Below, one piece after another: positions 23,172 to 41,765 of a DNA stretch of 64,000 bases (the first letter of the stretch is position 1; each line of letters opens with the position of its first letter). The notes beneath the pieces were generated by a model. It saw only the letters and a program-made list of their open reading frames with translations. It was not told the origin of the DNA and did not search any database. The DNA is taken from positions 896,001 to 960,000 of the forward strand of contig CAXXVZ010000003.1 of the NCBI GenBank assembly GCA_963678065.2, given 5' to 3'. Source of the stretch: Treponemataceae bacterium. Lineage in GTDB: Bacteria > Spirochaetota > Spirochaetia > Treponematales > Rectinemataceae. The position numbers were made by a program, and so were the translations under genes.

Positions 23172-25895
23172 TCAGCGCGATTGAAGCCTTTCACGGAATT
23201 CCGAAAGTTTGACAAGGGCCTTGAGGGGTGTCATGGACTCGATATCGAGTCCCGTCAACTCGGCCAGGACAAGGTCCCCGGCAGAAAAGAGGTCGCTCTG
23301 CGCATCGTGGACCAGCCGTACGGAATGTTCTGACAGCTCATGGCGTGACTTTCCGGTCCGCGAGGGCTCGGGTACCGCAACAAAGCGCTCCGTCCCCACG
23401 AGGCGTGATTGCTTTTCCTGCACGGCTTCGCCTTCCGTTTCGCCGCGCTCCGGATGACTCGGAAGGGACTGTTCTGCCTTCTCGAGCTGCGCCTGAATTG
23501 CCTTCGCCCGCTTCACCACATCTGAGGGCATGCCCGCGAGCCGGGCGACATGGAGCCCGAAGGAGCCCGTTGCGGGTTTCGCCTCGATGCGCTTCAGAAA
23601 GACGATATCGCCTTCCTCTTCGAGGACAGAGGGGCTCAGGTTGAAGAGCCGCGGGTGGACGAGGGCGGTCAGCTCGTGGTAGTGGGTGGCGAAGAGAGTG
23701 CGGCAGCGGATGGAATCGAGGAGTCGCTCGCTCACCGCCCAGGCGATGGCGAGTCCGTCCACCGTGCTCGTCCCCCTGCCCACCTCGTCCATGATAACGA
23801 GGCTGTCCGCCGTAGCGGTGTTGAGTATGTGCGCAGTCTCGTGCATCTCGACGAGGAATGTGCTCTCGCCCCGCGCGAGGTTGTCCTGAGCTCCGACACG
23901 GCAGAATATCTTGTCCACGACGCCGATTTCCGCCTCCTCGGCGGGAACGAAGGAGCCGCACTGGGCCATGAGGACGATGAGGGCTGTCTGTCGGAGAAAG
24001 GTGGATTTTCCGGCCATGTTGGGGCCCGTTATGAGGGCGAAGGAAGCGCCGCCAGCGTCGATATCGAGCCCGTTCGGCACGAACGCGGATTCTCCGAGCC
24101 ATGCTTCCACGACGGGGTGCCGACCCTCCCGGATGTGGATGGCCTTCCCCTCTGTGAGGTGGGGCCGCGAGTAGCCTCGGGCCGTCGCCACCCAGGCGAA
24201 GGCGGCGATGCAATCCTGGACGGCCGCGAGTCGACCCATCGAGAGAAGCTCGGGGACGACAAGCTTCACCTGTTCGCGCAGCGCAAGGAAGAGGCTCTTT
24301 TCGAGTTCGGTGATGCGCTCCGTCGCTCCATTGATCTCGCTCTCGAGTTCGGAAAGGCGGGCCGTCGTGTACCGCTCTCCCGTCACGAGGGATTGCCTTC
24401 GGATGAAGTGGGAGGGAACCGATTCCAGTTTCCCCTTGGAGACTTCGAGGTAATATCCGATTATGCGGTTGTATCGCACTCTGAGATTGGGAATGCCCGA
24501 AGTCGAGCGCTCCTCTTCGAGATAGGAGTCGAGGACAGTCGCCGAATCCTGCTTGATCGCCCGCAGTTCGTCGAGCTGGGTATTGTATCCTGAGCGGATG
24601 AGGTTGCCCTCGGTGATGAGGATGGAGGGATCTTCCTTGATGGCGGAATCGATCAGCCCGGCAATTTTTGAGGCCGAACCTGAGGCCGAATCCCCGCCAT
24701 CTCCTCCCAGAATTCCGGGTGCCCCCGCGCCCGCGAGGAGGGATCTGGCCTTGAGGCAGGCGCGGACGGAATCGCGGATCGCGAGAAGGTCTCTCGCGTG
24801 CGCCTTGTCCATGGCTGTCCGCGAGGCGAGTCTCTCGATGTCGAGGACGCGGCCGAGACTCTCCCGCAAGGCGTTGAGGAGGGACTGGTCGCGGTAGAGA
24901 AACTCGACGGCATCCAGCCGCTCGCTCGCGGCCGAGCAGGAAGCCAGAGGCTGGAGGAGCCACTGTCTGAGGAGGCGGGCCCCCGGAGCAGACTTGGTCG
25001 CATCGAGGACTCCGAGGAGGCTGCGGTTTTTCCCGGAATCCGAAAGGTTGCGCAGTATCTCGAGATTTTTGCCGGAGCCCTCGTCGATGCCCACGAATTC
25101 CCCCTCGTCGTGGGGCAGGAGGGCGGAAATCTGGGGTGAGGTGGTCTTCACGGTCTCGTCGACATAGCGCAGGAGGAAGGCGGCGGCGGCGAGCTCCGGC
25201 TCCTCGCCCGAGAAGCCGAGGCCCTTGAGGGAGGCAAGCCCGAATCTCCTGCAGAGATCTTTGGCGGCCATCGAGGCGTCGAAGCTCCAGTCGGGATATT
25301 TGCCGACCATGAGCCCCTCCACCCCCGCGACGACCTGGGCCAACTCCGGCGATTCGAGGAGGGATTGCTGGATGAGGAGTTCCCGCGGCATGAGGCGCGA
25401 GAGTTCGGCCGCGAGAAATCCGGGAGCGGCGCGGGCTCCGGGATCGGGCCTTGACAGGGCCCTGAAGTCTCCCGTAGAGACATCCAGCCAGGAGATGCAG
25501 ATCTTCTCTTCCAGTCTGCAGACGGCGACGATGTAGTTGTTGGCCGCCTGGTCGAGGAAGTCTTCCTCGACGGTGGTGCCGGGGGTGACGACTTCGACGA
25601 CATCGCGCCTGACTATTCCCTTCACGCTTCCCGGCACGTCGAGCTGCTCGCAGATGGCGACCTTCTTTCCGTGCTTAAGGAGGCGGGCGATGTAGGGCTT
25701 CGCGGCGTGGTATGGAATGCCGCACATCGGTTCACCCTGTCTGTGCGTCAGGGTGAGGTCGAGAAGGGCCGAGACCTCGAGGGCATCCTCGAAGAACATT
25801 TCATAAAAATCCCCGAGCCTGAAAAAGAGGACGGCGTCCCGGTAGCGCGCCTTCACTCCCTTATACTGCTCCATCATCGGAGATTTTTCTGTCAT
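23172..25895 (-). CDS. mutS: DNA mismatch repair protein MutS
   Basis: SPMMEQY, FFRLGDFYEMF, TGPNMAGKST, DEVGRGTS and FATHYHEL motifs. Start MTEKS overlaps the skp stop. Confidence 0.97.
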   Translation of the reverse strand: MTEKSPMMEQYKGVKARYRDAVLFFRLGDFYEMFFEDALEVSALLDLTLTHRQGEPMCGIPYHAAKPYIARLLKHGKKVAICEQLDVPGSVKGIVRRDVVEVVTPGTTVEEDFLDQAANNYIVAVCRLEEKICISWLDVSTGDFRALSRPDPGARAAPGFLAAELSRLMPRELLIQQSLLESPELAQVVAGVEGLMVGKYPDWSFDASMAAKDLCRRFGLASLKGLGFSGEEPELAAAAFLLRYVDETVKTTSPQISALLPHDEGEFVGIDEGSGKNLEILRNLSDSGKNRSLLGVLDATKSAPGARLLRQWLLQPLASCSAASERLDAVEFLYRDQSLLNALRESLGRVLDIERLASRTAMDKAHARDLLAIRDSVRACLKARSLLAGAGAPGILGGDGGDSASGSASKIAGLIDSAIKEDPSILITEGNLIRSGYNTQLDELRAIKQDSATVLDSYLEEERSTSGIPNLRVRYNRIIGYYLEVSKGKLESVPSHFIRRQSLVTGERYTTARLSELESEINGATERITELEKSLFLALREQVKLVVPELLSMGRLAAVQDCIAAFAWVATARGYSRPHLTEGKAIHIREGRHPVVEAWLGESAFVPNGLDIDAGGASFALITGPNMAGKSTFLRQTALIVLMAQCGSFVPAEEAEIGVVDKIFCRVGAQDNLARGESTFLVEMHETAHILNTATADSLVIMDEVGRGTSTVDGLAIAWAVSERLLDSIRCRTLFATHYHELTALVHPRLFNLSPSVLEEEGDIVFLKRIEAKPATGSFGLHVARLAGMPSDVVKRAKAIQAQLEKAEQSLPSHPERGETEGEAVQEKQSRLVGTERFVAVPEPSRTGKSRHELSEHSVRLVHDAQSDLFSAGDLVLAELTGLDIESMTPLKALVKLSEFRERLQSR

Positions 25896-26452
25896 TGAGT
25901 CTTGCCGGATAGAGATTTCAGGACCATGTCCGTGATGTCGATGGAGGGACTGTACCAAAGCACGGGGCTCGCCGAGGAGTCCCCACCCCGCAACGAGAGG
26001 ACGATCGAGTACCCATCGGCCTCCGCCGAGGCCTGTATCTGTCGGTTGACTTGCTGGACATAGATCGGAGAAGGAGGCATTTTCCGGGCGAGGTCCTCGA
26101 GTAAGGGCTGCTTCAGCTTGATGTAGTCGCGCAGCTCGTCCATTTTCGCGGCGATTTCGGCATCCATCTGAGCAGAAACGGTCTGGTTTCCCTCACGGTC
26201 CGCGTCGGCCTTCCGCGCCTGCAGACTGCGGATGACATCGCTCATCCTGTCGATCTCGGCCTGGACCTCGGATTTTTTCTGGTCGAAATCGCGGAGGGCG
26301 GCCGGGTCCCGGGGGAGTGTGGCGAGTATGCGCGACAGATCGACCACGGCGATGCGGGTCAACTGCTGAGCGAAGGCCGTGCCCGTGCCCAGGGCGAAAA
26401 GGGCAGCAAGCACGGCGACACGAAAGAGGCGATGTATCCGGTTCATCGTCAT
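25892..26452 (-). CDS. skp: OmpH/Skp periplasmic chaperone
   Basis: Signal peptide, RIAVVDL, coiled coil, GYSIVL and DITDMVL; directly downstream of bamA. Confidence 0.88.
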   Translation of the reverse strand: MTMNRIHRLFRVAVLAALFALGTGTAFAQQLTRIAVVDLSRILATLPRDPAALRDFDQKKSEVQAEIDRMSDVIRSLQARKADADREGNQTVSAQMDAEIAAKMDELRDYIKLKQPLLEDLARKMPPSPIYVQQVNRQIQASAEADGYSIVLSLRGGDSSASPVLWYSPSIDITDMVLKSLSGKTQ

Positions 26453-26492
26453 GCGTCTCCTTCCCTGATCTCCCGGGACCATGCCCGGGAGT

Positions 26493-29009
26493 TTACAGCG
26501 GCTGTGTGATGCTCAGGACGAACTCGAGCCCAGTTCCCGAAGTCTTCCATGTGACCGCGCTGCCGTCGAAGGTGAAGCGTTTCAGGAAGTAGAAGCGGAA
26601 CGGAAACTGCGAGATCGCGAACCTGAAGCCGAATCCCGTGCTGAAGGCCATATTGTCCCAGCCGAGATCCGCGAAAGTCGGCTTCGTCGGATCGGCGGCG
26701 GGCGCAGTGCCCGTCATGTCCATGAGTCCCTTCGTGGACTGCATCGCGGCCGCATCGAGGAAGCCATCGAGCCAGAGAACCTGGTCGATGAGTGGCATGC
26801 GCAGTTCGATGGAGTTTTCCCAGAATGCCACGCCACTCTGACCGTAGAGGCTCTTCCAGCCGCGGGCGTTGAAGGTTCCGTCGAGACTGATGTAGCTGTC
26901 GACGACGCTCAAGGCCGTGCCGGGCTGGGCGAAGAGTGCCTGGAAGCCGGAGTGGACGCCGAGAACCCACTTGAAGCGCCAGGCATCGGTGATGGGGATG
27001 TTGAAGATGGTCGCGTAGGCTTCGAGCTTGGTCTCTGACTTGATGAAGTGCTGGTACTCGAAGGGGAAGAAGCCGTTCCAGGTCAGGCGCTCTCCTGCGA
27101 AGAATCCCGAGGAGGGGTTGTACCAGAGGTCGAGGTTGTTGAGGTAGACCCGGGTCGTGAACTTGTTGTCTATGAGCCACTGCCCGACGTACTGCCGCAT
27201 GGACTTGAGGTAGGGTCTGTACTTGTCGGAATCGTAGTCCCAGCGGGTCACGCCGAAGGAGAGGCCCGCGTTGAGGCCGACATCACCCGCCGGCGTGTGG
27301 AACGAGTAGCCGGAAGAGGCGCCGATGCTCGACGACCAGTCCTCGTAGGGCATGAGATACTCGTCGGGGATGGAGGAGAGGGAGCCATCCCAGGGATTCG
27401 TTCCGGTATTGATGCCGTTGAAGGGATCGGGAATGTCTTCATCGGTATAGATCGGATCGAGACTGTCCTGTCCTGTGGTCTTGGACGCGTGGGAGAAGGA
27501 AAGGTCGATGCTGTACGATATCCTCTTGCCGAAGAGCCAGTTCTCGCCGTAGCCGAAAACGAGGCTCTGTGTGTCGGGGGAGCCGGTACCTTCGATCTTG
27601 AGAGTCCTGCCCATGCCAAGGAAGTTGCGGTCGTTCCACTTCACCTGGCCCGAAATCGGGAAGGTGTTGGGGTCGCCGAACCCGCTCAGGGTCACGCCGA
27701 ACTGGATGTTGGCCGTGCTCTGCTCCTCGACGGCTATGGAGAGATCCATGAGATTCTCCGCCGAGCCCTGCTGCATGTCGGGCTGGACAGCCGAGAAGTA
27801 CTGGAGATTGTAGAGATTGCGCAGGCCCTCGACGATTTTAGCCTTGGAGAAGATGTCGCCGACCTCGAGAGGCATCTCGCGCGAAAGGACGAAATCCTTG
27901 GTCTTCGTGTTGCCCTTGAAGCTGATGGTCGCGATGTGGGCGCGGTCGCGCTCGACGATCTTGATCTCGTAGGCTATCGACACGGAGGCGGGGTCCCTCT
28001 TCTCGACCATGTCGATCGTGTTGAAGATGTAGCCCGACTCGTAGTACAGGTCGTCGATCCTCTGTTTGTCCTGGTTGAGCTTGCGCTCGCTGAGGAGGGC
28101 TCCGGTCTTCTGGTAGACTTGCGCGGAGAGCTTCGCGGTGGAGAACACCTTGTTCCCGGTGAACGTGATTCCGCCGAAGGTCCACTGCTTGCCTTCCGAC
28201 AGGGCGAAGGTGAGGACAAGCCAGGTCTTTCCGCTCTTCGCGTCCTTGTCGTAAGTCCTGATGACATCGAGTATGCGGGCGTCGATGTATCCCTTGTTCC
28301 TGTAATAGCTCAGTATGGCCTGCTTGCTCGACTCCAGCTGGGACTCCTGGAAGATACCGCTCTGGAAGAGGGCGGCCTCCTTCAGCTCCATCTGGCCTTT
28401 GAGGATATTGGCGGATACGGCCGAGTTGCCTGTAAACCTGAGTTCGCGGACGGCGACTTTGGACCCTTCGGTGATCTTGAACGAGAGGACAATCTTGCCC
28501 GCATCGTTCCCCGGGCTGGATGACCAGGACAGGGCCGCGTCGGGATAGCCTTTTTCAGCGTAGAGTTTGCGCAGGGCGGCGAGATCAGAGGCGGCCTTGT
28601 CGGCGTTGAAGATTGTCCCTTCCTTGGAAACGATGACTCCGAGGAGCTCGTTGGTCCGCAAGCCCTCGTTGCCGGCGAAGCGGACGGCCTCGACAGAAGG
28701 TTTTTCCGTCACGGTGAACTTGATGACGACGCGGGTTTTGGTCTCGTTGGCGGGGAGGGCCACCGGTTCGATAGTCTCGAACCAGTCGAGTCCGTAGACG
28801 GCAGCCTGTATCTCCAGCCAGTTCTCTTCAGTGAAAGTCTTCCCGACATAGGGTCGGGTCACCGCGTCGAGTTCCTTGCGTGGCGCCTGCTTGAGACCTT
28901 CCCACTGGACCGATTCTATGGGTTTGTTCCAGAACCAGTCGTCGGCGGTCTGCGCGCCGAGGACGGCAGCCGACAGGGCCAGGACAAGGAGGGCGATGCT
29001 GTGCTTCAT
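26493..29009 (-). CDS. bamA: Outer membrane protein assembly factor BamA
   Basis: POTRA motifs (YAEKGY, YRNKGY, GNTKTKDFVLSRE, NLQYFS), RNFLGMG barrel start, ARGW loop and GFGFRF. Confidence 0.95.
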   Translation of the reverse strand: MKHSIALLVLALSAAVLGAQTADDWFWNKPIESVQWEGLKQAPRKELDAVTRPYVGKTFTEENWLEIQAAVYGLDWFETIEPVALPANETKTRVVIKFTVTEKPSVEAVRFAGNEGLRTNELLGVIVSKEGTIFNADKAASDLAALRKLYAEKGYPDAALSWSSSPGNDAGKIVLSFKITEGSKVAVRELRFTGNSAVSANILKGQMELKEAALFQSGIFQESQLESSKQAILSYYRNKGYIDARILDVIRTYDKDAKSGKTWLVLTFALSEGKQWTFGGITFTGNKVFSTAKLSAQVYQKTGALLSERKLNQDKQRIDDLYYESGYIFNTIDMVEKRDPASVSIAYEIKIVERDRAHIATISFKGNTKTKDFVLSREMPLEVGDIFSKAKIVEGLRNLYNLQYFSAVQPDMQQGSAENLMDLSIAVEEQSTANIQFGVTLSGFGDPNTFPISGQVKWNDRNFLGMGRTLKIEGTGSPDTQSLVFGYGENWLFGKRISYSIDLSFSHASKTTGQDSLDPIYTDEDIPDPFNGINTGTNPWDGSLSSIPDEYLMPYEDWSSSIGASSGYSFHTPAGDVGLNAGLSFGVTRWDYDSDKYRPYLKSMRQYVGQWLIDNKFTTRVYLNNLDLWYNPSSGFFAGERLTWNGFFPFEYQHFIKSETKLEAYATIFNIPITDAWRFKWVLGVHSGFQALFAQPGTALSVVDSYISLDGTFNARGWKSLYGQSGVAFWENSIELRMPLIDQVLWLDGFLDAAAMQSTKGLMDMTGTAPAADPTKPTFADLGWDNMAFSTGFGFRFAISQFPFRFYFLKRFTFDGSAVTWKTSGTGLEFVLSITQPL

Positions 29010-29025
29010 GGTGCTCCTCACGGAT

Positions 29026-32000
29026 TCAAAAGGAAATTTTCCAACTCAGACTGAGGCTTTGGTCGCTGATAAACAAACTATCGGAGAGACTCGGGGATAC
29101 ATTCCATCGCAACAATCCGAAAGGAGTTTCAAATTCAACGCCGAATTCGGAGTCTAGACGCAAATTGGTCGAGGTAACAAGAGGGTCCTCTTTGAGACGG
29201 AGGGCGGCGTGGAGGAAGGCGGATTTGCCGAGGAATTTGCCCGCGTAGAGGTATGTGTTGTCGAGGTAGCTGCCTAGGCTGTTCCCGCTGCTGCCCACGA
29301 CGACGGGTTGGGAGATGTCATAAAGCCAGCGTTGGAAGAAACTGCTCCGGAGGTAGAAGACGTCGAGTCCGAGCGCTTCCCTGACACGCCACTCGAAGGC
29401 TTTGACCACATTGAGCTGGGGCAGGAATTCGGAGGAGCCGATGAAAGCTTCCCTGAGCCCCACCTCGCCCGATGAACCGGTGGAGAGAACACCTCCTCCG
29501 AGCAGGGAAACGAGCTGTGCCTCCGTCATGGTGGGATCGGAGCTCAGCCTCGGATTGAGGTTGGACAGGGGGCTGCGGTCGGCGCTGAGAGTGATGGTCA
29601 CGGGGCCTTTCGTATCCACTTCACGCAGCTCGGCCGACAGGCTGATCCGAGGATCGAAATAGGCGTTGGACTCGGCGAATTCGACCTGTCCGCTCTTGAG
29701 GAAGAAATTGCGCAGATAATAGAAGGCGTAGCCGCTGCGCAGGACGAGGATCCCGTCCAATTTGAAATCGCCGGACTCCTGGTCGAATTTGAGTTTGAGG
29801 GCGCTCGATGGATCCGCGCTGCCGGTGATGAGGGGCAGATCCTTGGAAGGAAGGAATACCTGAACCCTGCGTCCGAAGCCGAATTGCGCATCCAGATAGA
29901 CCTTGATGCCATCCTGCGGAGCCTGCGCCTCGCCCTGTCCCATGAAAAGTCCGGGATTGACCACTACGTCCCCGCTCTCCAGATTCATCGTTCCAACGAG
30001 TTCGAGGAGTTCTCCCTTGAGTTCGGCGTTCAGGTTGACGTGCGCGACGCCTTTCTCGATGAGGATGCCCGCTATCTTGCCGGACACGCCGACCGTGGCG
30101 TTGCCTTTCGTGTTGAGCTTGCCCGAGAGGCTTGCGAGATTCCAGTGATCGAGGCTCACCTGAAGGGAGAGTTCGGCCGCTCCGTTGCCTATAGAGACCT
30201 TCGGCGCCGAGAAATAGAGGTTCTTTCCTTCCAGTACAAGGGGGACGGAGAAGGGACCGATGGGCTCCTCGAGGTAGCCCTGAAGGCGGACTACGACATC
30301 CTTCAGATTGAGGTTTCCGTTCAGGTCGGGGTCGTCCAGGGGGCCCGCGACGGTGAAAGATCCCGATGCCTTGCCTTTTTCGATCCGGAGGAGCCCCTCG
30401 GTCACGTCGGGACCGAGATCCGCGAAGTTGAGCTCGAACCCGGAGACGGCGGCGGCGATGACGCCTTCCCTGAATGTCCCTTTGATCTTCGCGACGACAG
30501 GAACGGGCCGAGAGAGATTCAGTTCGAAATTCCCGTCTTTTTCGTAACGGCCGGAGACTTCGTCCCCCTCGCTGTCGACGGATATCCTGCCACTCTGACT
30601 CACGACGTTGATTCGCCATTCAGAAATGTCGATCCGCCGGAAGGTCAGGGATTGGACATCAAGTTTGAGGTTGTAGGAATCGACGATGGAGGAGAATGAA
30701 GAGCCCGAAGGAGCTCCCGAGGTTCCTGACCCTTTGATCACGGTCTGCAGTCTGTCGCTGCCGAAGACCCCCGTGTACGGGATGGCGAAATCGAGCGCTC
30801 CGCTCGCGGGATCCAGGGAGACCGACGCGCCCGTTATCTCGTGGTTTATGTAAGAAGCGTCGAGCTTCGTCACATTGAAGACGCCTTTATCCAGATTCCC
30901 CGTGAAGGAAAGACTGAGGGGAACCGAGTTGTATTCGCCATTAGCCAGCTTCCCGGAAAAAACCGCGAGAGGAAGGCCCGAAAGTCCTGGCGCGGCGAGG
31001 TCGAAGGCACCATCGAAGGAAGCAGTCATGTCGAGTTCTCCGCGGATGCCCGTCCCGGGAGAATCGGGATTCTGCGCCTTCATGGTGGCGGAAAGATCAT
31101 TGATCAGATTCCCGGCCGTGGCCTGGAGAGAATTCTCGTCCGCGGCCGCGGAGAGAGCAGTTCCTGCGGCGGTCGAAACAGCCGGAGTTGCGGTATTGTC
31201 TGGAATTGTAGGACTGGCAGAAGCTCTGCTCTCGCCAGAAAGACCTCCACCGAAGAGACGCTCGATGGGGAATCCCTTGAGGTCGATGGAACCCTTGAGC
31301 GAGCCGTCACGGTATCCCGCATCCACACTCCAGCTCTCCTGCCCCCACCTCCCCCTCTCTCCTTCACCCCCTTCCCGTTCCAGCCTCCCCTTCACCTCCA
31401 CCCCACCCTTCACCTCTTCCCCATACCGGATACTCACCGGCCCTTTCAGCTTCCTTCCCCACCCCTCCACCACCACTTCCGCCAGCTCCACCTCCCCTGC
31501 CTTCCCCTTCAGACTCCCCCTTATCTTCGGTATCGGACTCTCCTTACCCCCCGCTCCCGCCACCGAAAACTCCACCCCCTCGACCCTCCACTCCTTCCCA
31601 CTACGATACTCTCCCTTCCCCCTCGCCATCACATTCACCACACCCATCCCTTTCCCCATCGGGACCGGCACACCTCCCACTCCAAACCCTACCGCGTACC
31701 CTCCCCCTGCTTCCCGCTGCACCTCCACCTCGATCCCGTAATCCCCCTTCGCCTCCACACTCCCGTCCGCCTTCGCTTTCCCCTCTATCCCGTACTCGAT
31801 CCCTTCATACTTCGCTTTCACCCGAAACCTCAGATCCCCTCCTGCCTCAAAATCTACCCGCCCCTCCCCCTCGACTTCCTTACCCCCCGCCTCGATCTTC
31901 ACGTTCTTCACTTCCGCGTAGTCCCCGTTCCCCACTCCCGCACATCCCAGACTGAACCCTTCCCCTCCACTCACCTTCATCCCCGGCGCGTTCCACGACA

Positions 32001-35000
32001 CCTTCCGGAAATCGCTCGTCGCATACACCCGCCCGGTCGCACGAAGCCCCCTCAGCACCCGCAAGTCTTCCGTCTTCCCCGTCACCGCCCCGTACACCAC
32101 ACCCACACTCCCCAGCCGATACCCCTCAAGGTCCACTTCCCCTTCCGCTCGCAGCTCCCCTGTCCTGTCCAGCCTCACCTGAACCGACACTTCTCTCCCC
32201 TTCCCCTCTTTCCCTCTCCCTAGCCCTCCCTTCAGCTCTACTACCTTGCTCCCCACCTTCGCCTCTATCTCCGGCTGCGCATACTCTTCATCCCCCACTC
32301 GCAGCGTCGCTCCTGCAAGCCGATACTCTCCCTTCCCCCCCTTCACCGCGAGTTCCGTCTGCCCTCCTTTCTCACCCCCCTTCCCCTTCAACTCCAGCCC
32401 AAGCAGTCCATCCACGGTGAGCCCTTCAAGCCCTACCTCTCCTGCAAAACTCCCGCTCACCACTCCGTACTCAAGCCGCGCTTCCTCGATCTTCACGGCC
32501 TGCCCTCGCCCTTCACCTTTCACCCTCAGCCCCGTCACCCGATTCGACTCCCCCGATACCCCGGCCCCCCCCACCGCACTCCCCGATGCCGCTCCTACAG
32601 GGCTAGCCCCTCCTGCACCCTCTCCTTCTCCTTCACTCCCGATATCCACCGCGTACTCCGCCCTCCTTCCCTCCAACCCAGGCACACCCAACCGGATGCT
32701 CCCTGTATAGGCTGTCCGCAGGAAATCAGTCAGCCAGGCAGGAGGCGCTTCCGCGGCGATCATATCCACGGGCCGGAGTCCGGAGAGGGCGAGTGAAAGG
32801 CCGAAATCGCCGGACCCGAGATCCAGGGAAGCGTTCGCAGACAATCCATCCTTCGACGCCCTTTGCATCGCGAGCCGGGAACCGTTGAAATCGAGATCGA
32901 ACCTTTGTTCGGCAACACTGAAGGCTTTGGACCGGTATCCGGCCATCATCTGACCTTTCAGGGCGGTCTGCCCTTGCCCGGACGCAGAGCCGGAATTCTT
33001 GCCCAGGATACTGGAGAGATCGACCGGCCCGCGGAGGTCGATGAAGCCGTCGACAAGGCCGTCCACGGCGACGCCGGGTATCCTCGACATCTGAAAACCT
33101 CTGACTTCGGCCTTTCCCGCGAGGTTTCCTCGCGCGACCGAAACGTCGAAATCCCAGGATTCCCCGGAGGCAGACAGGCTTCCCTTCAGCGATGCGGAGC
33201 CTTCCGAGCCGGTCGGGTAGAGTATGTCGGCCTTCCCGACAAGGGCTGTCGCCCCAGATCCGAGACTCAGATCGGATAGGGCGATGGAGCCTGGACGGAG
33301 GCGTGCCTTCGCGAGAATGGTGGGGATCCGACTTTCCTTGCCGCCTGCAGGACGTAAGGCGAGGCGGGAAAAATCCAGATGCCAGTCGCCGGGAGCCTTG
33401 TATCCGCCAAGGAGGGTGAAACTCGCGTTCACCACGCCGAGTTCGGAGTCGAAAGGCAAGGGGAGATCTTCCGCTGTCGCCTCTGCCGAGTAGCTCCCCG
33501 CACTTTGTGAAACAAGAACCCTGAGGCCGTGATTTCCCTGGATAAGGAATTTTCCATCAGCATCGGTGGAACCGGAGACTGTGTAGCTCGCTCCGTTCCA
33601 CTGTATTTCCGACGAGAGCCGCGCGGAGAGTCTGGACGGATCGATCCTTATTCCGGCAGGGAAACCGAGGTCGAGAACGGTGTCGATCGCCCGCGCGGGC
33701 CCGGCCGTCACGAGGGGAGCCGTTATCGTATAGGCGTTCCGGGCACCCTTTATACCAAGGTCGGTCCGTATCGGGAAGCCTCCGGGTTTCTGGGCGCCAA
33801 TGGCGATCAGTGCGCTTCCATCCACCGACATGTCCGCGAGGCCTATCCGTCCGGCAAACTCCACCCTGTCCGCGCCGCGAGAGAAGGAGAGCTTCCTCAC
33901 CTGCATGTTCGCGGCTGTCCCGTCGGCATCGAGGGCCAGCGACAGACCTGTGCCACCTCCCGTGGCCTCGACGACTCCCGTCTCCGCCGGAACGGACAGG
34001 AAACTTGTTCCACTCTGTCCTTCCAGCTTCGCCGTGAAGGCCGCCTTCCCGAAATCCCCGGCCGGCACCTTCAGCTCCAGCTTGCCCGTGAGAGGCATCC
34101 CGAAGAAAGCGGAGAAATCCTTCGACGCAGTTTTCAGGTCGACGAAGTCGGAAAGGCGGAAATCGCGCAGTGACAGGCCGGCAACCAGATCCTTCCCCGC
34201 CGGAGCATACGTTGCTGCGATCGAGATGCCGTCCCTGTCGGGCAGATGCGCTTCGATTTTCTTCCCATCAAACGAGATATCGAAACGTCTTTCGGCGACA
34301 TCGAATGAAGGAGATCGCAGGCCCGCCATGAGTCTGGCCTTGATAGTGCCGGGACCCGCAGGGTCGCCGAGTCGGGCAAAATCGAAGGGGCCTTCGAACG
34401 AGAGATATCCGTCGGCTTCTGCCTCGGGAGCGTCGGAATACAGTCGTCGGATGGGGAATCCCTTGAGGTCGATGGAACCCTTGAGCGAGCCGTCACGGTA
34501 TCCCGCATCCACACTCCAGCTCTCCTGCCCCCACCTCCCCCTCTCTCCTTCACCCCCTTCCCGTTCCAGCCTCCCCTTCACCTCCACCCCACCCTTCACC
34601 TCTTCCCCATACCGGATACTCACCGGCCCTTTCAGCTTCCTTCCCCACCCCTCCACCACCACTTCCGCCAGCTCCACCTCCCCTGCCTTCCCCTTCAGAC
34701 TCCCCCTTATCTTCGGTATCGGACTCTCCTTACCCCCCGCTCCCGCCACCGAAAACTCCACCCCCTCGACCCTCCACTCCTTCCCACTACGATACTCTCC
34801 CTTCCCCCTCGCCATCACATTCACCACACCCATCCCTTTCCCCATCGGGACCGGCACACCTCCCACTCCAAACCCTACCGCGTACCCTCCCCCTGCTTCC
34901 CGCTGCACCTCCACCTCGATCCCGTAATCCCCCTTCGCCTCCACACTCCCGTCCGCCTTCGCTTTCCCCTCTATCCCGTACTCGATCCCTTCATACTTCG

Positions 35001-36837
35001 CTTTCACCCGAAACCTCAGATCCCCTCCTGCCTCAAAATCTACCCGCCCCTCCCCCTCGACTTCCTTACCCCCCGCCTCGATCTTCACGTTCTTCACTTC
35101 CGCGTAGTCCCCGTTCCCCACTCCCGCACATCCCAGACTGAACCCTTCCCCTCCACTCACCTTCATCCCCGGCGCGTTCCACGACACCTTCCGGAAATCG
35201 CTCGTCGCATACACCCGCCCGGTCGCACGAAGCCCCCTCAGCACCCGCAAGTCTTCCGTCTTCCCCGTCACCGCCCCGTACACCACACCCACACTCCCCA
35301 GCCGATACCCCTCAAGGTCCACTTCCCCTTCCGCTCGCAGCTCCCCTGTCCTGTCCAGCCTCACCTGAACCGACACTTCTCTCCCCTTCCCCTCTTTCCC
35401 TCTCCCTAGCCCTCCCTTCAGCTCTACTACCTTGCTCCCCACCTTCGCCTCTATCTCCGGCTGCGCATACTCTTCATCCCCCACTCGCAGCGTCGCTCCT
35501 GCAAGCCGATACTCTCCCTTCCCCCCCTTCACCGCGAGTTCCGTCTGCCCTCCTTTCTCACCCCCCTTCCCCTTCAACTCCAGCCCAAGCAGTCCATCCA
35601 CGGTGAGCCCTTCAAGCCCTACCTCTCCTGCAAAACTCCCGCTCACCACTCCGTACTCAAGCCGCGCTTCCTCGATCTTCACGGCCTGCCCTCGCCCTTC
35701 ACCCTTCACCCTCAGCCCCGTCACCCGATTCGACTCCCCCGATACCCCGGCTCCTCCCTCCGCACTCCCCGATGCCGCTCCTACAGGGCTAGCCCCTCCT
35801 GCACCCTCTCCTTCTCCTTCACTTCCGATATCCACCGCGTACTCCGCCCTCCTTCCCTCCAACCCAGGCACCCGCACCCGGATATTCCCTGTATAGGAGT
35901 CGTCGAGCAGAGCCTGGGTATTTGCGGATTTCGTGACGACTGCGGAGATCTTTGCCGGGACAAAATTCTTGAGATCGACCGACGCGGAGAGGTTCTTGTC
36001 TTGCAGGTTCAGGACGGCTCGCGCGGCCAGCCCCTCGGAGGCAGGGCGGTCGAGCTCGAACCTCGATCCGTCGAAAGAAATGTTGAAACTCTGCCCGGAA
36101 ACCGAAAATCCCTCGGCCCTGTACCCTATCAGTATCTTGCCCCGGAAAGAACTCAGTATGGGATTGAACGAGAGTCCGAATTCGAGCGGTCCCGAGACAG
36201 AGAAACCGTTCCCCGCCGGAGAAAGAGAGTAATTCCCGTTCAGGAATGACAAAGCCGGCACAGCTTCCTTTGTGGAAAACGTGATGAGCGCCGAATCCAG
36301 CCGATAGCTTCCGCCTCCGGCAGTACCCCCCGCATTAGCTCCAGAGGTCCCGCCGGAAGTACTGCCGGTATCTCGCAGTTCCATCACGGTGTCCGTGAGA
36401 CGGATCGAGATGGGCGGAGGTGTCGAGGCGGGGCCCGATCCGAGGAGTTTACGGAGCTTTTCCGCCGTGTCGGCGTCTCCCGGGAGGACGAGAGAGAGTC
36501 TGGTCTTGTCGAGGCGGATATCTTTGACTATGTGGCGGCTGTCACCCGCGACGAGGGCGGGAAGACTGTAGAGGACCGAGAGCCTGCCTGCCGAAAGAAG
36601 GACGCTGCCGTCAGGACGCGAGAAGCGTATCCCGTTCAGAGTAAGGGAACTCAGAATCGAGGGGGAGATCGAGGAAAACCGGAGATCGAGGCCGAGTTCC
36701 TTTTTGACGTATGTCTGAAGGTCGACGACAATGGAGCCGGCCTTCCTGCTGACCGCACGGTACACCAGCGGCGTCGCTGCGAGGAAGAGGATTATGAATG
36801 CTCCTGTCGCGGCGAAAGCCCGCCTGCGCTTCACCAT
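29026..36837 (-). CDS. tamB: Very large TamB/AsmA-like (bridge-like) envelope protein, 2603 aa, with internal duplication
   Basis: N-terminal TM anchor, beta-rich body and TamB-like C-terminus (FDPRISLSAE, LSSDPTMTEAQLVSLL, aromatic terminal strand WKISF). Directly upstream of bamA, as in other spirochetes. Confidence 0.85.
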   Translation of the reverse strand: MVKRRRAFAATGAFIILFLAATPLVYRAVSRKAGSIVVDLQTYVKKELGLDLRFSSISPSILSSLTLNGIRFSRPDGSVLLSAGRLSVLYSLPALVAGDSRHIVKDIRLDKTRLSLVLPGDADTAEKLRKLLGSGPASTPPPISIRLTDTVMELRDTGSTSGGTSGANAGGTAGGGSYRLDSALITFSTKEAVPALSFLNGNYSLSPAGNGFSVSGPLEFGLSFNPILSSFRGKILIGYRAEGFSVSGQSFNISFDGSRFELDRPASEGLAARAVLNLQDKNLSASVDLKNFVPAKISAVVTKSANTQALLDDSYTGNIRVRVPGLEGRRAEYAVDIGSEGEGEGAGGASPVGAASGSAEGGAGVSGESNRVTGLRVKGEGRGQAVKIEEARLEYGVVSGSFAGEVGLEGLTVDGLLGLELKGKGGEKGGQTELAVKGGKGEYRLAGATLRVGDEEYAQPEIEAKVGSKVVELKGGLGRGKEGKGREVSVQVRLDRTGELRAEGEVDLEGYRLGSVGVVYGAVTGKTEDLRVLRGLRATGRVYATSDFRKVSWNAPGMKVSGGEGFSLGCAGVGNGDYAEVKNVKIEAGGKEVEGEGRVDFEAGGDLRFRVKAKYEGIEYGIEGKAKADGSVEAKGDYGIEVEVQREAGGGYAVGFGVGGVPVPMGKGMGVVNVMARGKGEYRSGKEWRVEGVEFSVAGAGGKESPIPKIRGSLKGKAGEVELAEVVVEGWGRKLKGPVSIRYGEEVKGGVEVKGRLEREGGEGERGRWGQESWSVDAGYRDGSLKGSIDLKGFPIRRLYSDAPEAEADGYLSFEGPFDFARLGDPAGPGTIKARLMAGLRSPSFDVAERRFDISFDGKKIEAHLPDRDGISIAATYAPAGKDLVAGLSLRDFRLSDFVDLKTASKDFSAFFGMPLTGKLELKVPAGDFGKAAFTAKLEGQSGTSFLSVPAETGVVEATGGGTGLSLALDADGTAANMQVRKLSFSRGADRVEFAGRIGLADMSVDGSALIAIGAQKPGGFPIRTDLGIKGARNAYTITAPLVTAGPARAIDTVLDLGFPAGIRIDPSRLSARLSSEIQWNGASYTVSGSTDADGKFLIQGNHGLRVLVSQSAGSYSAEATAEDLPLPFDSELGVVNASFTLLGGYKAPGDWHLDFSRLALRPAGGKESRIPTILAKARLRPGSIALSDLSLGSGATALVGKADILYPTGSEGSASLKGSLSASGESWDFDVSVARGNLAGKAEVRGFQMSRIPGVAVDGLVDGFIDLRGPVDLSSILGKNSGSASGQGQTALKGQMMAGYRSKAFSVAEQRFDLDFNGSRLAMQRASKDGLSANASLDLGSGDFGLSLALSGLRPVDMIAAEAPPAWLTDFLRTAYTGSIRLGVPGLEGRRAEYAVDIGSEGEGEGAGGASPVGAASGSAVGGAGVSGESNRVTGLRVKGEGRGQAVKIEEARLEYGVVSGSFAGEVGLEGLTVDGLLGLELKGKGGEKGGQTELAVKGGKGEYRLAGATLRVGDEEYAQPEIEAKVGSKVVELKGGLGRGKEGKGREVSVQVRLDRTGELRAEGEVDLEGYRLGSVGVVYGAVTGKTEDLRVLRGLRATGRVYATSDFRKVSWNAPGMKVSGGEGFSLGCAGVGNGDYAEVKNVKIEAGGKEVEGEGRVDFEAGGDLRFRVKAKYEGIEYGIEGKAKADGSVEAKGDYGIEVEVQREAGGGYAVGFGVGGVPVPMGKGMGVVNVMARGKGEYRSGKEWRVEGVEFSVAGAGGKESPIPKIRGSLKGKAGEVELAEVVVEGWGRKLKGPVSIRYGEEVKGGVEVKGRLEREGGEGERGRWGQESWSVDAGYRDGSLKGSIDLKGFPIERLFGGGLSGESRASASPTIPDNTATPAVSTAAGTALSAAADENSLQATAGNLINDLSATMKAQNPDSPGTGIRGELDMTASFDGAFDLAAPGLSGLPLAVFSGKLANGEYNSVPLSLSFTGNLDKGVFNVTKLDASYINHEITGASVSLDPASGALDFAIPYTGVFGSDRLQTVIKGSGTSGAPSGSSFSSIVDSYNLKLDVQSLTFRRIDISEWRINVVSQSGRISVDSEGDEVSGRYEKDGNFELNLSRPVPVVAKIKGTFREGVIAAAVSGFELNFADLGPDVTEGLLRIEKGKASGSFTVAGPLDDPDLNGNLNLKDVVVRLQGYLEEPIGPFSVPLVLEGKNLYFSAPKVSIGNGAAELSLQVSLDHWNLASLSGKLNTKGNATVGVSGKIAGILIEKGVAHVNLNAELKGELLELVGTMNLESGDVVVNPGLFMGQGEAQAPQDGIKVYLDAQFGFGRRVQVFLPSKDLPLITGSADPSSALKLKFDQESGDFKLDGILVLRSGYAFYYLRNFFLKSGQVEFAESNAYFDPRISLSAELREVDTKGPVTITLSADRSPLSNLNPRLSSDPTMTEAQLVSLLGGGVLSTGSSGEVGLREAFIGSSEFLPQLNVVKAFEWRVREALGLDVFYLRSSFFQRWLYDISQPVVVGSSGNSLGSYLDNTYLYAGKFLGKSAFLHAALRLKEDPLVTSTNLRLDSEFGVEFETPFGLLRWNVSPSLSDSLFISDQSLSLSWKISF
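31264..32685. repeat. ~1.42 kb direct repeat in tamB, copy B (C-proximal)
   Basis: Matches 34450-35871 at offset 3186; only 5 mismatches found by eye. Confidence 0.97.
34450..35871. repeat. ~1.42 kb direct repeat in tamB, copy A (N-proximal)
   Basis: Matches 31264-32685; encodes VPGLEGRRAEYAVDIG...GSIDLKGFPI. Confidence 0.97.
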
Positions 36838-37595: not shown

Positions 37596-38615
37596 CTACC
37601 TGATCAGCATCGCGTCCCCGTAGCTGAAAAAGCGGTATTTTTCTCGCACGGCCGCCGCGTAGGCATCCAGTATCCTCTGTCTTCCCGCGAAGGCCGACAC
37701 GAGCATGAGGAGGGTCGACTTGGGCGTGTGGAAATTGGTGAAGAGCCTGTCCACGACCTTGAAGGTGTACCCCGGATAGATGAAAATCCTCGTGCTGCCC
37801 GGCCCGGCCGCGAGGCCTCCTTCGGCCCAGGCGGACTCGAGGGTCCTGAGACTCGTCGTCCCGACGGCGACGACGGGCCGTCCCTGGGACTTGGCGCGCG
37901 CGACGGCTGCTGCCGTTTCGGCCGGAACGGAGTACTCCTCCTCGTGCATGAGGTGGTCCTCGATCCGCTCCGAACGCACGGGAAGAAAGGTTCCGAGCCC
38001 CACGTGCAGCGTCACCCAGGCGCTCTCGATTCCTTTGGCCGACAGCGAGTCGAGAATCTCGGGCGTGAAATGGAGGCCCGCAGTCGGCGAGGCGGATGAT
38101 CCGACATTCTTCGAGTACACGGTCTGGTAGCGCTCGGCGTCGGAGGGGACGTCCTCCCTCTTTATATATGGAGGAAGCGGAATGTGGCCAACGCGGTCCA
38201 GGTAGTCTTCGCCGATGGGCGGAGAGAATCTGATCGTCCGCGTGTCCTCGCGCGCGTCGACGATTTCGCCCGATACGCCCTCGGGAAAGGAGTACAGCCG
38301 CCCGGGTCTCTGCCGTTTCGCCTTGGTGCAGGCGGCTTCCCAGACATCCGGACCCTGTCTCCGAAGAAGCAGGAACTCGACCCCGGAGCCGGTATCGCAG
38401 GCGGTTCCGAAGAGCCTCGCCTTCCTGACCCGCGAATCGTTGAACACCATGAGGCTGCCGGCTTCGACAAAGGAAGCTATATCGCGGACCATGGAGTGCG
38501 TCAGCCGCCCCGAGGCGCGGTCCAGAACGAGGAGACGGGAATCGCCGCGATTTCCTGTCGGAAACTGGGCGATTTGCTCCTCGGGCAGTTCAAAACTGAA
38601 ATCGTCCGTCTTCAC
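37596..38615 (-). CDS. queA: S-adenosylmethionine:tRNA ribosyltransferase-isomerase
   Basis: [29 protein letters not shown] and [10 protein letters not shown] motifs. Confidence 0.97.
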
Positions 38616-39726
38616 GGGGCAGCTCCATGCCGAGATGTCTGTAGGCGGCGCTCGTCGCGACGCGGCCGCGCGGCGTGCGCGCTATCATGCCCGCCTGAAT
38701 GAGGTAGGGTTCGTAGAAGTCCTCGAGGCTGTCCACGCCCTCCCCGACGGTGATGGCGAGGGTTTCGGCGCCGACCGGCCCCCCCCCGTACTTCAAGATA
38801 ATGGCCTTCAATATTTCGCGGTCCAGGCGCTCGAAACCGAGCGGGTCCACCTCGAGGCGGGCGAGCCCCGCCTGCACGATGCGCTTCGTGACGATGGGGG
38901 AGCCTTCCACTTGGGCGAAGTCGCGCATGCGGCGCAGAAGGCGGTTCGCGATGCGCGGCGTGCCTCTGCTCGTGAGCGCGAGCAGCGCCGTCGCGTCCGG
39001 GTCCAGTTCGACGCCGAGGATGCCGGCGGAGCGTCGGATGACGAGCTCGAGTTCGGCGGGCTCGTAGTAGCTGAAGCGCATGCTGATGCCGAAGCGGCTC
39101 GCGAGGGGGGCCGAGACGGTGCCCGCCTTCGTCGTCGCCCCGACGAGGGTGAAGGGCGGAACCGGCACGCGGACCGTGCGGGCGGCTGGCCCCTGGCCGA
39201 TGACCCAGTCCAGTTCGAAATCCTCCATCGCGATGTAGAGCATCTCTTCTATGGCAGGTTTCAGCCGGTGGATCTCGTCGATGAAGAGGACGGAGCGCTC
39301 GCGCAGTGTCGTGAGGATTCCCGCGACATCCTTGGGCTTGTCGAGGGCGGGCGCGCTCGTCGGCTTGAAATCGACGCCGAGTTCCGTCGCGACGACGAGG
39401 GCGAGAGTTGTCTTGCCGAGTCCCGGAGGCCCCATCAGGAAGACATGGTCGAGGGCTTCCCCGCGCTCCCGCGCGGCCCGTATGAAGAGGCTCAGATTCT
39501 CCTTGATCCGGGTCTGGCCCTGGAACTCCGAGAGGACGTGGGGCCGGAGGGTGTTCTCCCTGCCGTCCTCGGCGGGGTCATACGAGGGATCCATCGGAGT
39601 CAGATGCGTGATCGCGGCCTTATCGGGAACTGCGATCTCATGCGGGATACCGGACCCGATCCTGTCACCATACTCCGCGATCTCTCCCGGCTGACTGGCC
39701 GCGCCTGTTTTTTTCCGTGCCGCCAT
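38590..39726 (-). CDS. ruvB: Holliday junction helicase RuvB
   Basis: [30 protein letters not shown] and RTPRGR motifs. Confidence 0.97.
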
Positions 39727-39729
39727 GGA

Positions 39730-40338
39730 TCAACCTCCCGCGGAGAGCTCGATGAGGGCTCTCCGGAAAATCTCGCGCTCGCGGTCGGGTCCGGGCGGGA
39801 TTTCGCCCGCGTGGCTGCGGACAGATTTTTCCGCGGCGGGCCTGGCGAAACCCATGTCGACGAGGGCGCGGATGACATCCGACCACTCTCCCCCGCCTGA
39901 GCCCGCGGAATGCAGGGTCCTGACCGAATCCTCGACCCGGACGAGCTTGCCCTTGAGCGCGAGCAGCATCTTCTGGGCCACCTTGGGACCGACGCCAGGG
40001 ATGCGCATCAGCGTGGCGAGGTCGCTGTCGTCCAGGGCGCGGACCAAGGACTCGGAGCGGATGCCCGAGACGATGCGCATGGCCTGTTTGGGGCCTATCC
40101 CCTCGACCTTCATGAGCTCGAGGAAGACGGTCCTGTCCTCGACGTTGGAGAAACCGAAGAGGCGCATCCCGTCCTCGTAGTGGTGAAGCCAGGTGTAGAC
40201 CTTGGTCTGTGCGTCGAGGAAGCCGAAGTCGTCGAGCGAGCGGGTGGGGACGGTTATTTCCCACTCCACTCCTCCCGTGTCGACGCAGACGGAATCGGGC
40301 CGCTTCTCGGAAAGCCTGCCGGAAATGCTGTTGAACAT
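39730..40338 (-). CDS. ruvA: Holliday junction binding protein RuvA
   Basis: LFGF, VEGIGPK, IPGVGPKVA and ALVDMGF motifs. Confidence 0.96.
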   Translation of the reverse strand: MFNSISGRLSEKRPDSVCVDTGGVEWEITVPTRSLDDFGFLDAQTKVYTWLHHYEDGMRLFGFSNVEDRTVFLELMKVEGIGPKQAMRIVSGIRSESLVRALDDSDLATLMRIPGVGPKVAQKMLLALKGKLVRVEDSVRTLHSAGSGGGEWSDVIRALVDMGFARPAAEKSVRSHAGEIPPGPDREREIFRRALIELSAGG

Positions 40339-40471
40339 GGTTTTTGCAGTATAGCAGAAGCGCAGGGGGAGGTCTGCCCTGCCCTTCTTGTCGTGTTTTA
40401 TTTATGAGGCACCGCGCCCTGCGCGGAATTTTGCTCCCGGAATCCGGATCACAGACGCTTAGGGCGGCCAG

Positions 40472-41008
40472 TTAAGGCTTGAGCCTCGACAGGGCGCCCT
40501 CGTTGTGCCAGCGGCAGATCGCGGCGGCGAGGGCATCGGCGGCGTGGTCAGGTTTCGGGACCTCCGGCAGTCCGAGGAGGATGCGCACCATCTCCTGCAC
40601 TTGAGCCTTATCGGCGCGGGCCGAGCCGGTGACGGCCTGCTTGATCGCGGTCGGGGAGAGGTCGGCGAGGGGAACGCCGGCCATGGCGAAGGCGAGGCGG
40701 ATGACGCCGCGGGCCTCGGCCACGGGGAGGGCGGAGGTGACGTTGCGGAAGAAGAACAGCGATTCCATGCCGCCGAAAGTTGGCTGCCAGATCCCGATGA
40801 GATCCCTCACCCTGTCGTGGATGTCGCTGAGCCTGTCGGCGAGGGGGCTGTCGGAAGGGGTCGTGAAGCAGCCGTATTCGAGGAGTTTCATGCTTGTGCC
40901 CGCGACATCGATGAGTCCGTAGCCGATGGAGGCGAGGCCGGGGTCTATCCCGATGACGCGAAGGGCCGGACCGCCTCTCGGCTGTCCGGCCCCAGGTTGC
41001 GCTTTCAC
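40472..41008 (-). CDS. ruvC: Crossover junction endodeoxyribonuclease RuvC
   Basis: IGIDPG, ESLFF, AEARGV, KAQVQEMV and DHAADALA motifs. Probable GTG start at 41008. Confidence 0.95.
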   Translation of the reverse strand: MKAQPGAGQPRGGPALRVIGIDPGLASIGYGLIDVAGTSMKLLEYGCFTTPSDSPLADRLSDIHDRVRDLIGIWQPTFGGMESLFFFRNVTSALPVAEARGVIRLAFAMAGVPLADLSPTAIKQAVTGSARADKAQVQEMVRILLGLPEVPKPDHAADALAAAICRWHNEGALSRLKP

Positions 41009-41027
41009 GCTTCGGTCCGCCGCAGTA

Positions 41028-41765
<738 letters not shown>

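Follow-up and report, generated by a model that had tools for sequence, protein, structure and literature searches.

Duplicated DNA segments longer than 500 bp and more than 80% identical, whose |GC skew| and |TA skew| both average more than 0.15, have been defined as GRINS, a class of repeats with intense nucleotide skews (PMC8256042). In GRINS, the skew is strongest at third codon positions, a functional protein is recoded, and the repeats are tied to gene conversion and include single-copy and eroded stages; cases with anticorrelated skews are mentioned, the genome survey took in five phyla, with Spirochaetota not among them, and the origin is stated as unknown, an error-prone polymerase being proposed (PMC8256042). 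The vls cassettes of the spirochaete Borrelia have a GC skew of 0.52, which the authors read as selected, without giving a mechanism (PMC11499132). The latter paper is silent on GRINS, and the former on Borrelia and vls. Our searches turned up no paper that connects GRINS with spirochaetes, with vls or with mismatch repair, while the supplements of PMC8256042 could list further taxa; judged by title, papers on GRINS with intense nucleotide skews treated only polyketide synthase (PKS) and nonribosomal peptide synthetase subjects, and none of the matches listed for the spirochete literature concerned tamB repeats. No paper came up on error-prone transversions as a source of GC skew in vlsE, and on C-C mismatches, MutS and heteroduplexes in gene conversion the searches gave unrelated eukaryote papers. 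Here we describe a repeat of this kind inside the tamB gene of a Treponemataceae bacterium, located in a stretch of 64,000 nucleotides (the window; contig CAXXVZ010000003.1, positions 896,001 to 960,000).

The tamB product has a C-terminal PF04357 TamB domain (amino acids (aa) 2314-2498, E 2e-12), an N-terminal hydrophobic anchor and an adjoining Omp85 gene, and exceeds the one-copy form (1,541 aa) by 1,062 aa, most relatives having 1,440-1,580 aa. Its gene contains a direct repeat of 1,448 bp per copy at an offset of 3,186, with 10 differences that all fall within 182 bases at the coding 5' end of the repeat; positions 31264-32517 of copy B (1,254 bp) are identical to copy A. The spacer between the copies holds an older, diverged third copy of the segment (33091-33621, 28-29% aa identity) of normal composition. 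Change points of the G/C skew, placed by maximum likelihood, set the skewed core of each copy 18 bases in from one end of the repeat and 48 bases in from the other end, and the mean coding-strand GC skew over the copy is +0.64 (0.61-0.64). Among the 52,625 1-kb windows of the source genome (5.27 Mb in 5 contigs, 99.9% complete, unclosed), the two tamB copies rank at the top with |skew| of 0.67 and 0.66; 16 windows exceed 0.5, the tract ranking third stands at 0.47, and the standard deviation over the genome is 0.085.

At fourfold-degenerate sites, one copy has 186 G, 46 A, 22 T and 9 C, against 285 G, 111 A, 151 T and 444 C in the rest of the gene (Fisher p=8e-52), and amino-acid composition therefore does not account for the skew. 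The G+C content of these sites is 74.1% inside the copy and 73.6% outside, indicating that base pairs were flipped, neither gained nor lost. Codon counts inside and outside are 0/72 for GGC, 67/38 for GGG, 3/55 for GTC, 45/25 for GTG and 2/103 for CTC, and the protein follows, with E:D at 60:13 versus 67:106, K:N at 34:5 versus 69:56, and V:L at 56:27 versus 103:200. C-to-T deamination alone was rejected as the cause: C at twofold C/T sites falls from 64% to 39%, but at fourfold sites from 45% to 3%, with G taking its place. The descriptive part of a previous, sequence-only reading of this DNA is thereby borne out, namely its count at 31321-31380 (exactly 36 C and 3 G, together with 15 T and 6 A), the second, likewise skewed tract in copy A, skew edges close to the repeat edges, the synonymous switch to G-ending codons, the shift of the protein toward G/E/K/V, and the argument that the force acts on the nucleic acid because silent sites change.

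Contigs from 4 public sequencing runs were aligned to tamB. In run X1, a near-exact match to the window that may be its source, the repeat forms one 1,422-bp contig of depth 50 between flanks of depth 23-28, contig depth not being a copy number. In run X7, a strain from another study, contig ends fall at these same edges of the repeat, and the differences from the window number 83 in 5,253 bases of flank and 21 in 1,310 bases of repeat (~1.6%); the duplication is therefore older than this strain split. Copies A and B nevertheless show 0 differences over 1,254 bp, against ~20 expected from the divergence of the sister strains. The tamB copies are homogenised, that is, they undergo concerted evolution, which gene conversion and cycles of unequal crossover fit alike. 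To this extent the sequence-only interpretation is supported, and the signature is shared by further repeats in envelope or surface-protein genes of the same genome (see below). A cassette system like pilE or vls, which it had brought up for comparison, is not supported. Both copies stand in frame in one gene, and the proposed search for silent donors (blastn, tblastn) gave none in the 5-contig genome, only a single 29-bp chance match. Exchange over the identical 1,254 bp would yield no variants, and the 10 differences, all at one edge, do not form variable regions of the vls type.

Measured in 150-nt windows with a step of 30, the mean |GC skew| is 0.64 in both copies and 0.08-0.13 in the rest of tamB, and the mean |TA skew| is 0.22 and 0.21 in the two copies, at 99.3% identity over 1,448 bp. 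The TA skew falls short of the threshold as paraphrased in 2023 ('higher than 25%', PMC10394414), and GC and TA skew are negatively correlated (r = -0.28 and -0.34), whereas a positive correlation is typical of GRINS without defining them. In length, identity and both skews, the tamB repeat falls within the definition of PMC8256042, and it is a new case of this known, unexplained class, which the sequence-only reading had not named. Coordinates are collected in Table 1.

Table 1. Features of the window and fourfold G/(G+C) of repeat-bearing genes of the source genome
Feature	Position in window	Strand	G/(G+C) inside repeat	G/(G+C) outside	Remarks
tamB, 2,603 aa	29026..36837	-	0.93	0.39	open reading frame; Pfam PF04357; lengths in relatives
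Repeat copy A, aa 314-796	34450..35897	-			orthologous to TamB aa ~320-790 of relatives
Repeat copy B, aa 1376-1858	31264..32711	-			99.3% identical to copy A
G-rich, C-poor core of copy A	34498..35879	-			change points
G-rich, C-poor core of copy B	31312..32693	-			change points
In-frame spacer, normal composition	32712..34449	-			holds older paralogue of repeated segment
bamA, 5 POTRA stretches + Omp85	26493..29021	-			directly downstream of tamB
skp/ompH	25892..26482	-			domain match
mutS	23172..25958	-			domain match; same orientation, closes gene run tamB-bamA-skp-mutS
Ig/FlgD giant protein			0.87	0.36	
SLBB polysaccharide-export protein			0.92	0.41	
2,071-aa predicted lipoprotein			0.72	0.23	
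Calx-beta protein			0.71	0.51	

The recoded segment is ~25% identical to the ordinary TamB middle (aa ~320-790) of orthologues of 1,450-1,540 aa; Gly, Glu, Lys and Val are raised about two- to threefold, and 105 of 125 hydrophobic columns are kept. With a 28-sequence alignment it was modelled as a continuous beta-sheet (mean pLDDT 85; 38 for a single-sequence model). Searches with this model gave generic beta-sheet matches that did not single out TamB: Foldseek returned nothing clear, and E. coli TamB (5vtg) came at rank 44, below porins (Z 7.5, rmsd 4.9, 105 aligned). The process behind the skew can, as far as the predicted fold goes, rewrite ~3/4 of the residues of a segment relative to its orthologues while the fold holds.

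Of 40 relatives, 39 yielded the C-terminal part of tamB. In a tree of this part, with the tract left out, built from the source genome and its 29 best matches, all 11 genomes labelled skewed fall in one clade of 14 (support 100/100, 13 genera), and a skewed, broken or expanded tamB middle occurs only there. TamB length within the clade ranges from ~1,490 to 2,900 aa. The longest is an eroded array in G010 (C35), whose copies are 63-70% identical and whose fourfold G/C is near parity while the protein is still G/K/E-rich; the other members not labelled skewed are G014 (C83), with a TamB of 1,993 aa, and G016, mildly skewed and broken. Clade genes usually break where the skew starts, with G/C in the last 50 codons of 20/0, 17/0, 22/5, 18/0, 15/6 and 15/4, the last two counts being weak evidence; in G007 a unit of 1,668 bp is collapsed, and G017 has a gap in the scaffold. 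No sustained skew was seen in the profiled parts of 16 genomes outside the clade (G005 without its C-terminal half, G032 and G036 in part), nor was any seen in the complete tamB genes, 28 in number, from 36 named loci that in part coincide with these 16. The skewed tracts occupy the same tamB position in the 11 clade genomes, and 8 of 10 pairs have no blastn match; with nucleotide similarity so nearly lost, the skew has been kept or regenerated through deep divergence.

The sequence-only reading had held the skew to be confined to the duplicated cassettes. Within tamB it is indeed bounded by the repeat, but it recurs in other repeats of the genome, in a prophage and in the gap-pgk genes, of which this genome has one copy. 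The genome-wide comparison of skew with repeats that the sequence-only reading had asked for used our own open-reading-frame-based gene calls (3,879 genes, some false ones included): fourfold G/(G+C) exceeds 0.85 in 76 of 378 repeated 100-codon windows, which are not independent, versus 21 of 11,646 non-repeated ones. Eight of the 3,879 genes are internally repeated; six are long (>1 kb repeated), and five of these six are G-shifted inside the repeat only. On contig C3, these include a 5,766-aa FlgD-Ig/CHU_C/OmpA protein (C3:181938-199235), whose arrays comprise 4x1,320 bp and 3x1,941 bp, and a 3,578-aa SLBB polysaccharide-export protein (C3:287939-298672) with near-identical arrays; in both, G-recoding is restricted to the arrays. 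In each of the 6 repeat-bearing genes tabulated, no shift exceeds that of G/C (ln odds 1.5-3.1), A/T shifts being small (-0.2 to +0.9); shifts of equal size occur at C3:1628780 (T/C, 1.59) and C5:1126518 (twofold G/A, 2.02). Neighbouring duplicated genes on C5 are also G-shifted, including a divergent pair that is G-rich on the coding strand in both members. This pair (C5:1136262-1141805 and C5:1152383-1157998, near dnaA) encodes proteins of ~1,850 aa, ~86-91% identical and both G-recoded; one scanned member has a C-terminal AHH nuclease domain and is polymorphic-toxin-like.

Replication-strand skew was rejected as a cause, as fourfold sites of ordinary genes show no G/C difference between replichores along the contigs; two genes inferred to lie on the lagging strand have a skew that tracks their coding strand. 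The gap (type II-like) and pgk genes (C3:373148-375494) are fully G-recoded (gap, 142 G and 15 C) and single-copy in the source genome (G000), X1 and X2, while strains X5 and X7 show contig breaks at the start of gap, joined in X7 by one near the end of pgk, and about twice the depth, which suggests an orphaned repeat. Against a close unskewed orthologue, fourfold changes in gap are 47 C>G, 12 T>G, 11 A>G and 3 G>C. In G009, a second, partial, G-rich gap copy was seen. Two further regions were noted in passing. A tandem family of ~640-aa alpha/beta-hydrolase-like genes (C3:1712000-1757000; 58-88% identical, C-rich) provides a control with no G shift. The single-copy genes at C5:931500-938300 (thr-operon-like, by eye) have an extremely C-rich coding strand (37 G, 277 C), the opposite polarity, and adjoin the end of an AT-rich, integron-like cassette array (C5:750000-931600) with many ~270-bp repeats and insertion sequence (IS) elements.

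Since mutS closes the gene run that begins with tamB, the organism has MutS-type repair; mutL lies in the same genome at C3:1087631, and NucS had no match there, in a search whose control matched in 6 of 14 genomes. Other genes near tamB were named by eye from their translations as ruvB/ruvA/ruvC-like (38590-41149) and mutS2-like (41955-44474); the mutS, ruv-like and mutS2-like genes all lie within 8 kb of tamB, with no link to the repeat shown. Elsewhere in the window, the N terminus of infB (18877-19607) has 78-bp tandem repeats rich in Gly, Gln and Tyr, which are 95-97% identical, use C-ending codons and show no G shift.

The account we favour is that of an in-frame duplication, of the GRINS type, of a beta-strand segment of TamB whose copies are recombinationally homogenised, the G-rich coding strand being a likely by-product of the exchange; taken as a whole, it has in our judgement an even chance of being right. 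The copies would exchange through heteroduplexes of fixed polarity relative to transcription, possibly aided by R-loops on the now G-rich strand, and the mismatch formed would depend on the entering allele (G:G versus C:C, G:T versus A:C, G:A versus T:C). If MutS-type repair treats the members of each such pair unequally, one base-pair orientation would be fixed more often, and over many rounds the coding strand would change strongly from C to G and weakly from T to A, while selection on TamB would let pass those changes that match the strand pattern and are either silent or conservative (L to V, D to E, N to K, A or S to G). C:C mismatches are poorly repaired. E. coli MutS has a higher affinity for G/T than for A/C and for G/A than for T/C (PMC4838380). 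Skew edges inside the homology, homogenised copies, constant G+C, the dominance of C-to-G and erosion on loss of identity support the reading as a by-product of conversion, and strand-polarised gene conversion with mismatch-type-biased repair is the likely mechanism. Of 31 singleton differences in multi-copy arrays, 22 are transitions, 12 lead away from G and 2 toward it (p=0.013), and none is C>G; that the newest differences are ordinary and directed away from G suggests biased fixation in preference to biased mutation.

Several observations weigh against this account. The strand polarity of the heteroduplex and its direction are assumed, and replichores were assigned from a weak T/A signal, the genome being unclosed. 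The singleton test comprises 31 differences in arrays of 3-5 copies, where conversion or consensus errors could mispolarise changes, and at fourfold sites alone it gives 7 versus 1 (p=0.07). Unskewed repeats exist, namely an HsdS-like internal repeat (39 G, 46 C), IS copies and the short infB repeats, and tandem paralogues of 84-88% identity at C3:1.72-1.74 Mb are C-rich. Conversely, the G-rich tamB tract of G015 (fourfold G/C 51/1) is single-copy in its assembly of 380 contigs, where no partner was found, and a prophage at C3:809-833 kb (terminase, coat and tail genes) bears the same signature, with G-ending codons throughout and no partner copy in the genome; beside it, in the region C3:809000-842000, the G skew of the + strand runs on into opposite-strand genes (fourfold 57 G, 362 C).

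Error-prone, strand-biased repair synthesis could instead write G on the coding strand, for example through C-to-G transversions, with conversion spreading the result. The same confinement to homogenised DNA would follow, and this alternative draws on the dominance of C>G in gap, on the non-templated changes tied to switching at Borrelia vlsE (PMC9159922) and on the polymerase proposed for GRINS. Set against it are the newest differences among the copies described above, mostly transitions, away from G and never C>G; in addition, the transition-only tautomer model (PMC8256042) predicts G+T, whereas in tamB T falls and G+C is constant. We consider it rather unlikely, and on the same small numbers (12 away, 2 toward) the plain strand-biased mutation entertained by the sequence-only reading fits worse than biased fixation. 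That reading had also raised a dedicated recombinogenic tract, and G-richness might be selected for R-loops or G-quadruplexes (G4), so that TamB length changes by gain and loss of modules, as proposed for vls, whose skew of 0.52 was read as selected (PMC11499132). The G4Hunter check that it had proposed is positive in one respect, scores exceeding 1.2 in 47% of the windows of each copy and in <1% elsewhere in tamB, and each copy has 4 canonical G4 motifs, while TamB length is widely spread in the clade; G4 or R-loop formation is thus possible, as a consequence. Runs and motifs, on the other hand, stand at or below the level set by composition (93 GGG runs versus 92.9, and 4 motifs versus 6.2 +/- 1.4, in 1,000 synonymous shuffles), gap-pgk and phage genes share the signature where length variation has no evident use, and no contig joint across a deleted repeat unit is among those listed from the 4 runs, contigs dropping rare variants. 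Selection of this kind is unlikely, and a dedicated recombinogenic tract is not supported.

Rho prefers C-rich, G-poor RNA. A G-rich, C-poor mRNA might therefore evade Rho termination in a long gene, or strands rich in Gly, Glu, Lys and Val might be favoured in the protein, and the skewed repeats do lie mostly in giant genes and on the coding strand; the skew ends within 50 bases of the repeat edges, however, and C-richness prevails both in the 1.7-kb spacer with its paralogue and in the other giant genes outside their repeats, making such selection quite improbable. Import of the segment from a donor with G-ending codons (a phage or another spirochaete), followed by recent duplication, would explain the sharp edges and could draw on the G-skewed prophage ~90 kb away. 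The segment is, however, the orthologous TamB middle, it stands at one position in 11 clade genomes even though most tract pairs lack a blastn match, and its copies are older than the 1.6% strain split and nevertheless match, so that import is very improbable. G-rich tracts and exact repeats do trouble assemblers, and many relatives break here; an assembly or sequencing artefact is nevertheless refuted by independent short-read contigs that give all four repeat edges at ~twofold depth, the frame is open through both copies, and the protein aligns to its orthologues and folds in prediction, which leaves this reading a virtually nil probability.

Returning to conversion with biased repair, a broader reading, which we hold tentatively as a possibility, is that GRINS mark where a general, strand-polarised and biased form of gene conversion has acted, its flavour depending on the mismatch-repair enzyme of the host. 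In hosts with MutS/MutL, repeats would then move toward G, and weakly toward A, on one strand while G+C stays constant, and in hosts with NucS/EndoMS toward G+T versus C+A, as in Streptomyces, which use NucS; the Borrelia vls cassettes would be GRINS, with a skew that results from switching and is not a selected trigger, and the tamB clade would be a dated series of birth, maintenance, orphaning and erosion. EndoMS/NucS cuts G/T, G/G and T/T and leaves C/C, A/C and A/A (PMC4838380, PMC6159515). The case brings the signature to a spirochaete housekeeping gene, and, a sister strain coming from a groundwater metagenome, immune escape is no evident driver. It also narrows the force to a C:G flip at constant G+C, where the published transition-only model predicts otherwise. 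Its value lies in the bridge to vls and in the controls that come with it. The paralogue in the spacer is not skewed, the genome has repeats with and without skew, one pair looks orphaned, one array has eroded, and the trait stops at a clade boundary. The rewriting of a protein segment bears on phylogenetics and on short-read assembly, most genomes of the clade having tamB broken here.

Compared with known systems, the locus resembles BB0794/BB0795 of B. burgdorferi (PMC13382580, PMC5582053) in having tamB immediately upstream of bamA and a C-terminal PF04357, and differs in that the middle segment is internally triplicated, with two copies homogenised and recoded. With Borrelia vls/vlsE (PMC11499132, PMC9159922, PMC8001052) it shares a spirochaete host, repeated gene segments under conversion, a coding-strand GC skew (0.52 in vls, 0.61-0.64 in tamB), an AT skew that is around zero or has a slight excess of A in the rows covered, and the lack of a conserved G4 arrangement. 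Unlike vls, tamB has two in-frame copies in one gene and no silent cassettes, expression site or variable regions, its G+C is not above the genome level, and TamB is periplasmic and not a surface antigen. The Neisseria pilE G4 motif lies upstream of the gene. As quoted in PMC11499132, pilE likewise links G-rich DNA with gene conversion, but through one compact G4 motif by the gene, whereas in tamB 1.4 kb of coding DNA is G-rich along its length and G4 motifs are not enriched. The closest likeness is to GRINS (PMC8256042), with which the tamB repeat shares a long near-identical duplication, skewed GC and TA, a recoded protein, a link to conversion, and single-copy and eroded stages; in contrast to typical GRINS, it lies in a housekeeping envelope gene and not in a PKS or transposase gene, is uniformly G(+A) on the coding strand with no switching between G+T and C+A, which is the minority anticorrelated flavour, and is held at one gene position across a 13-genus clade.

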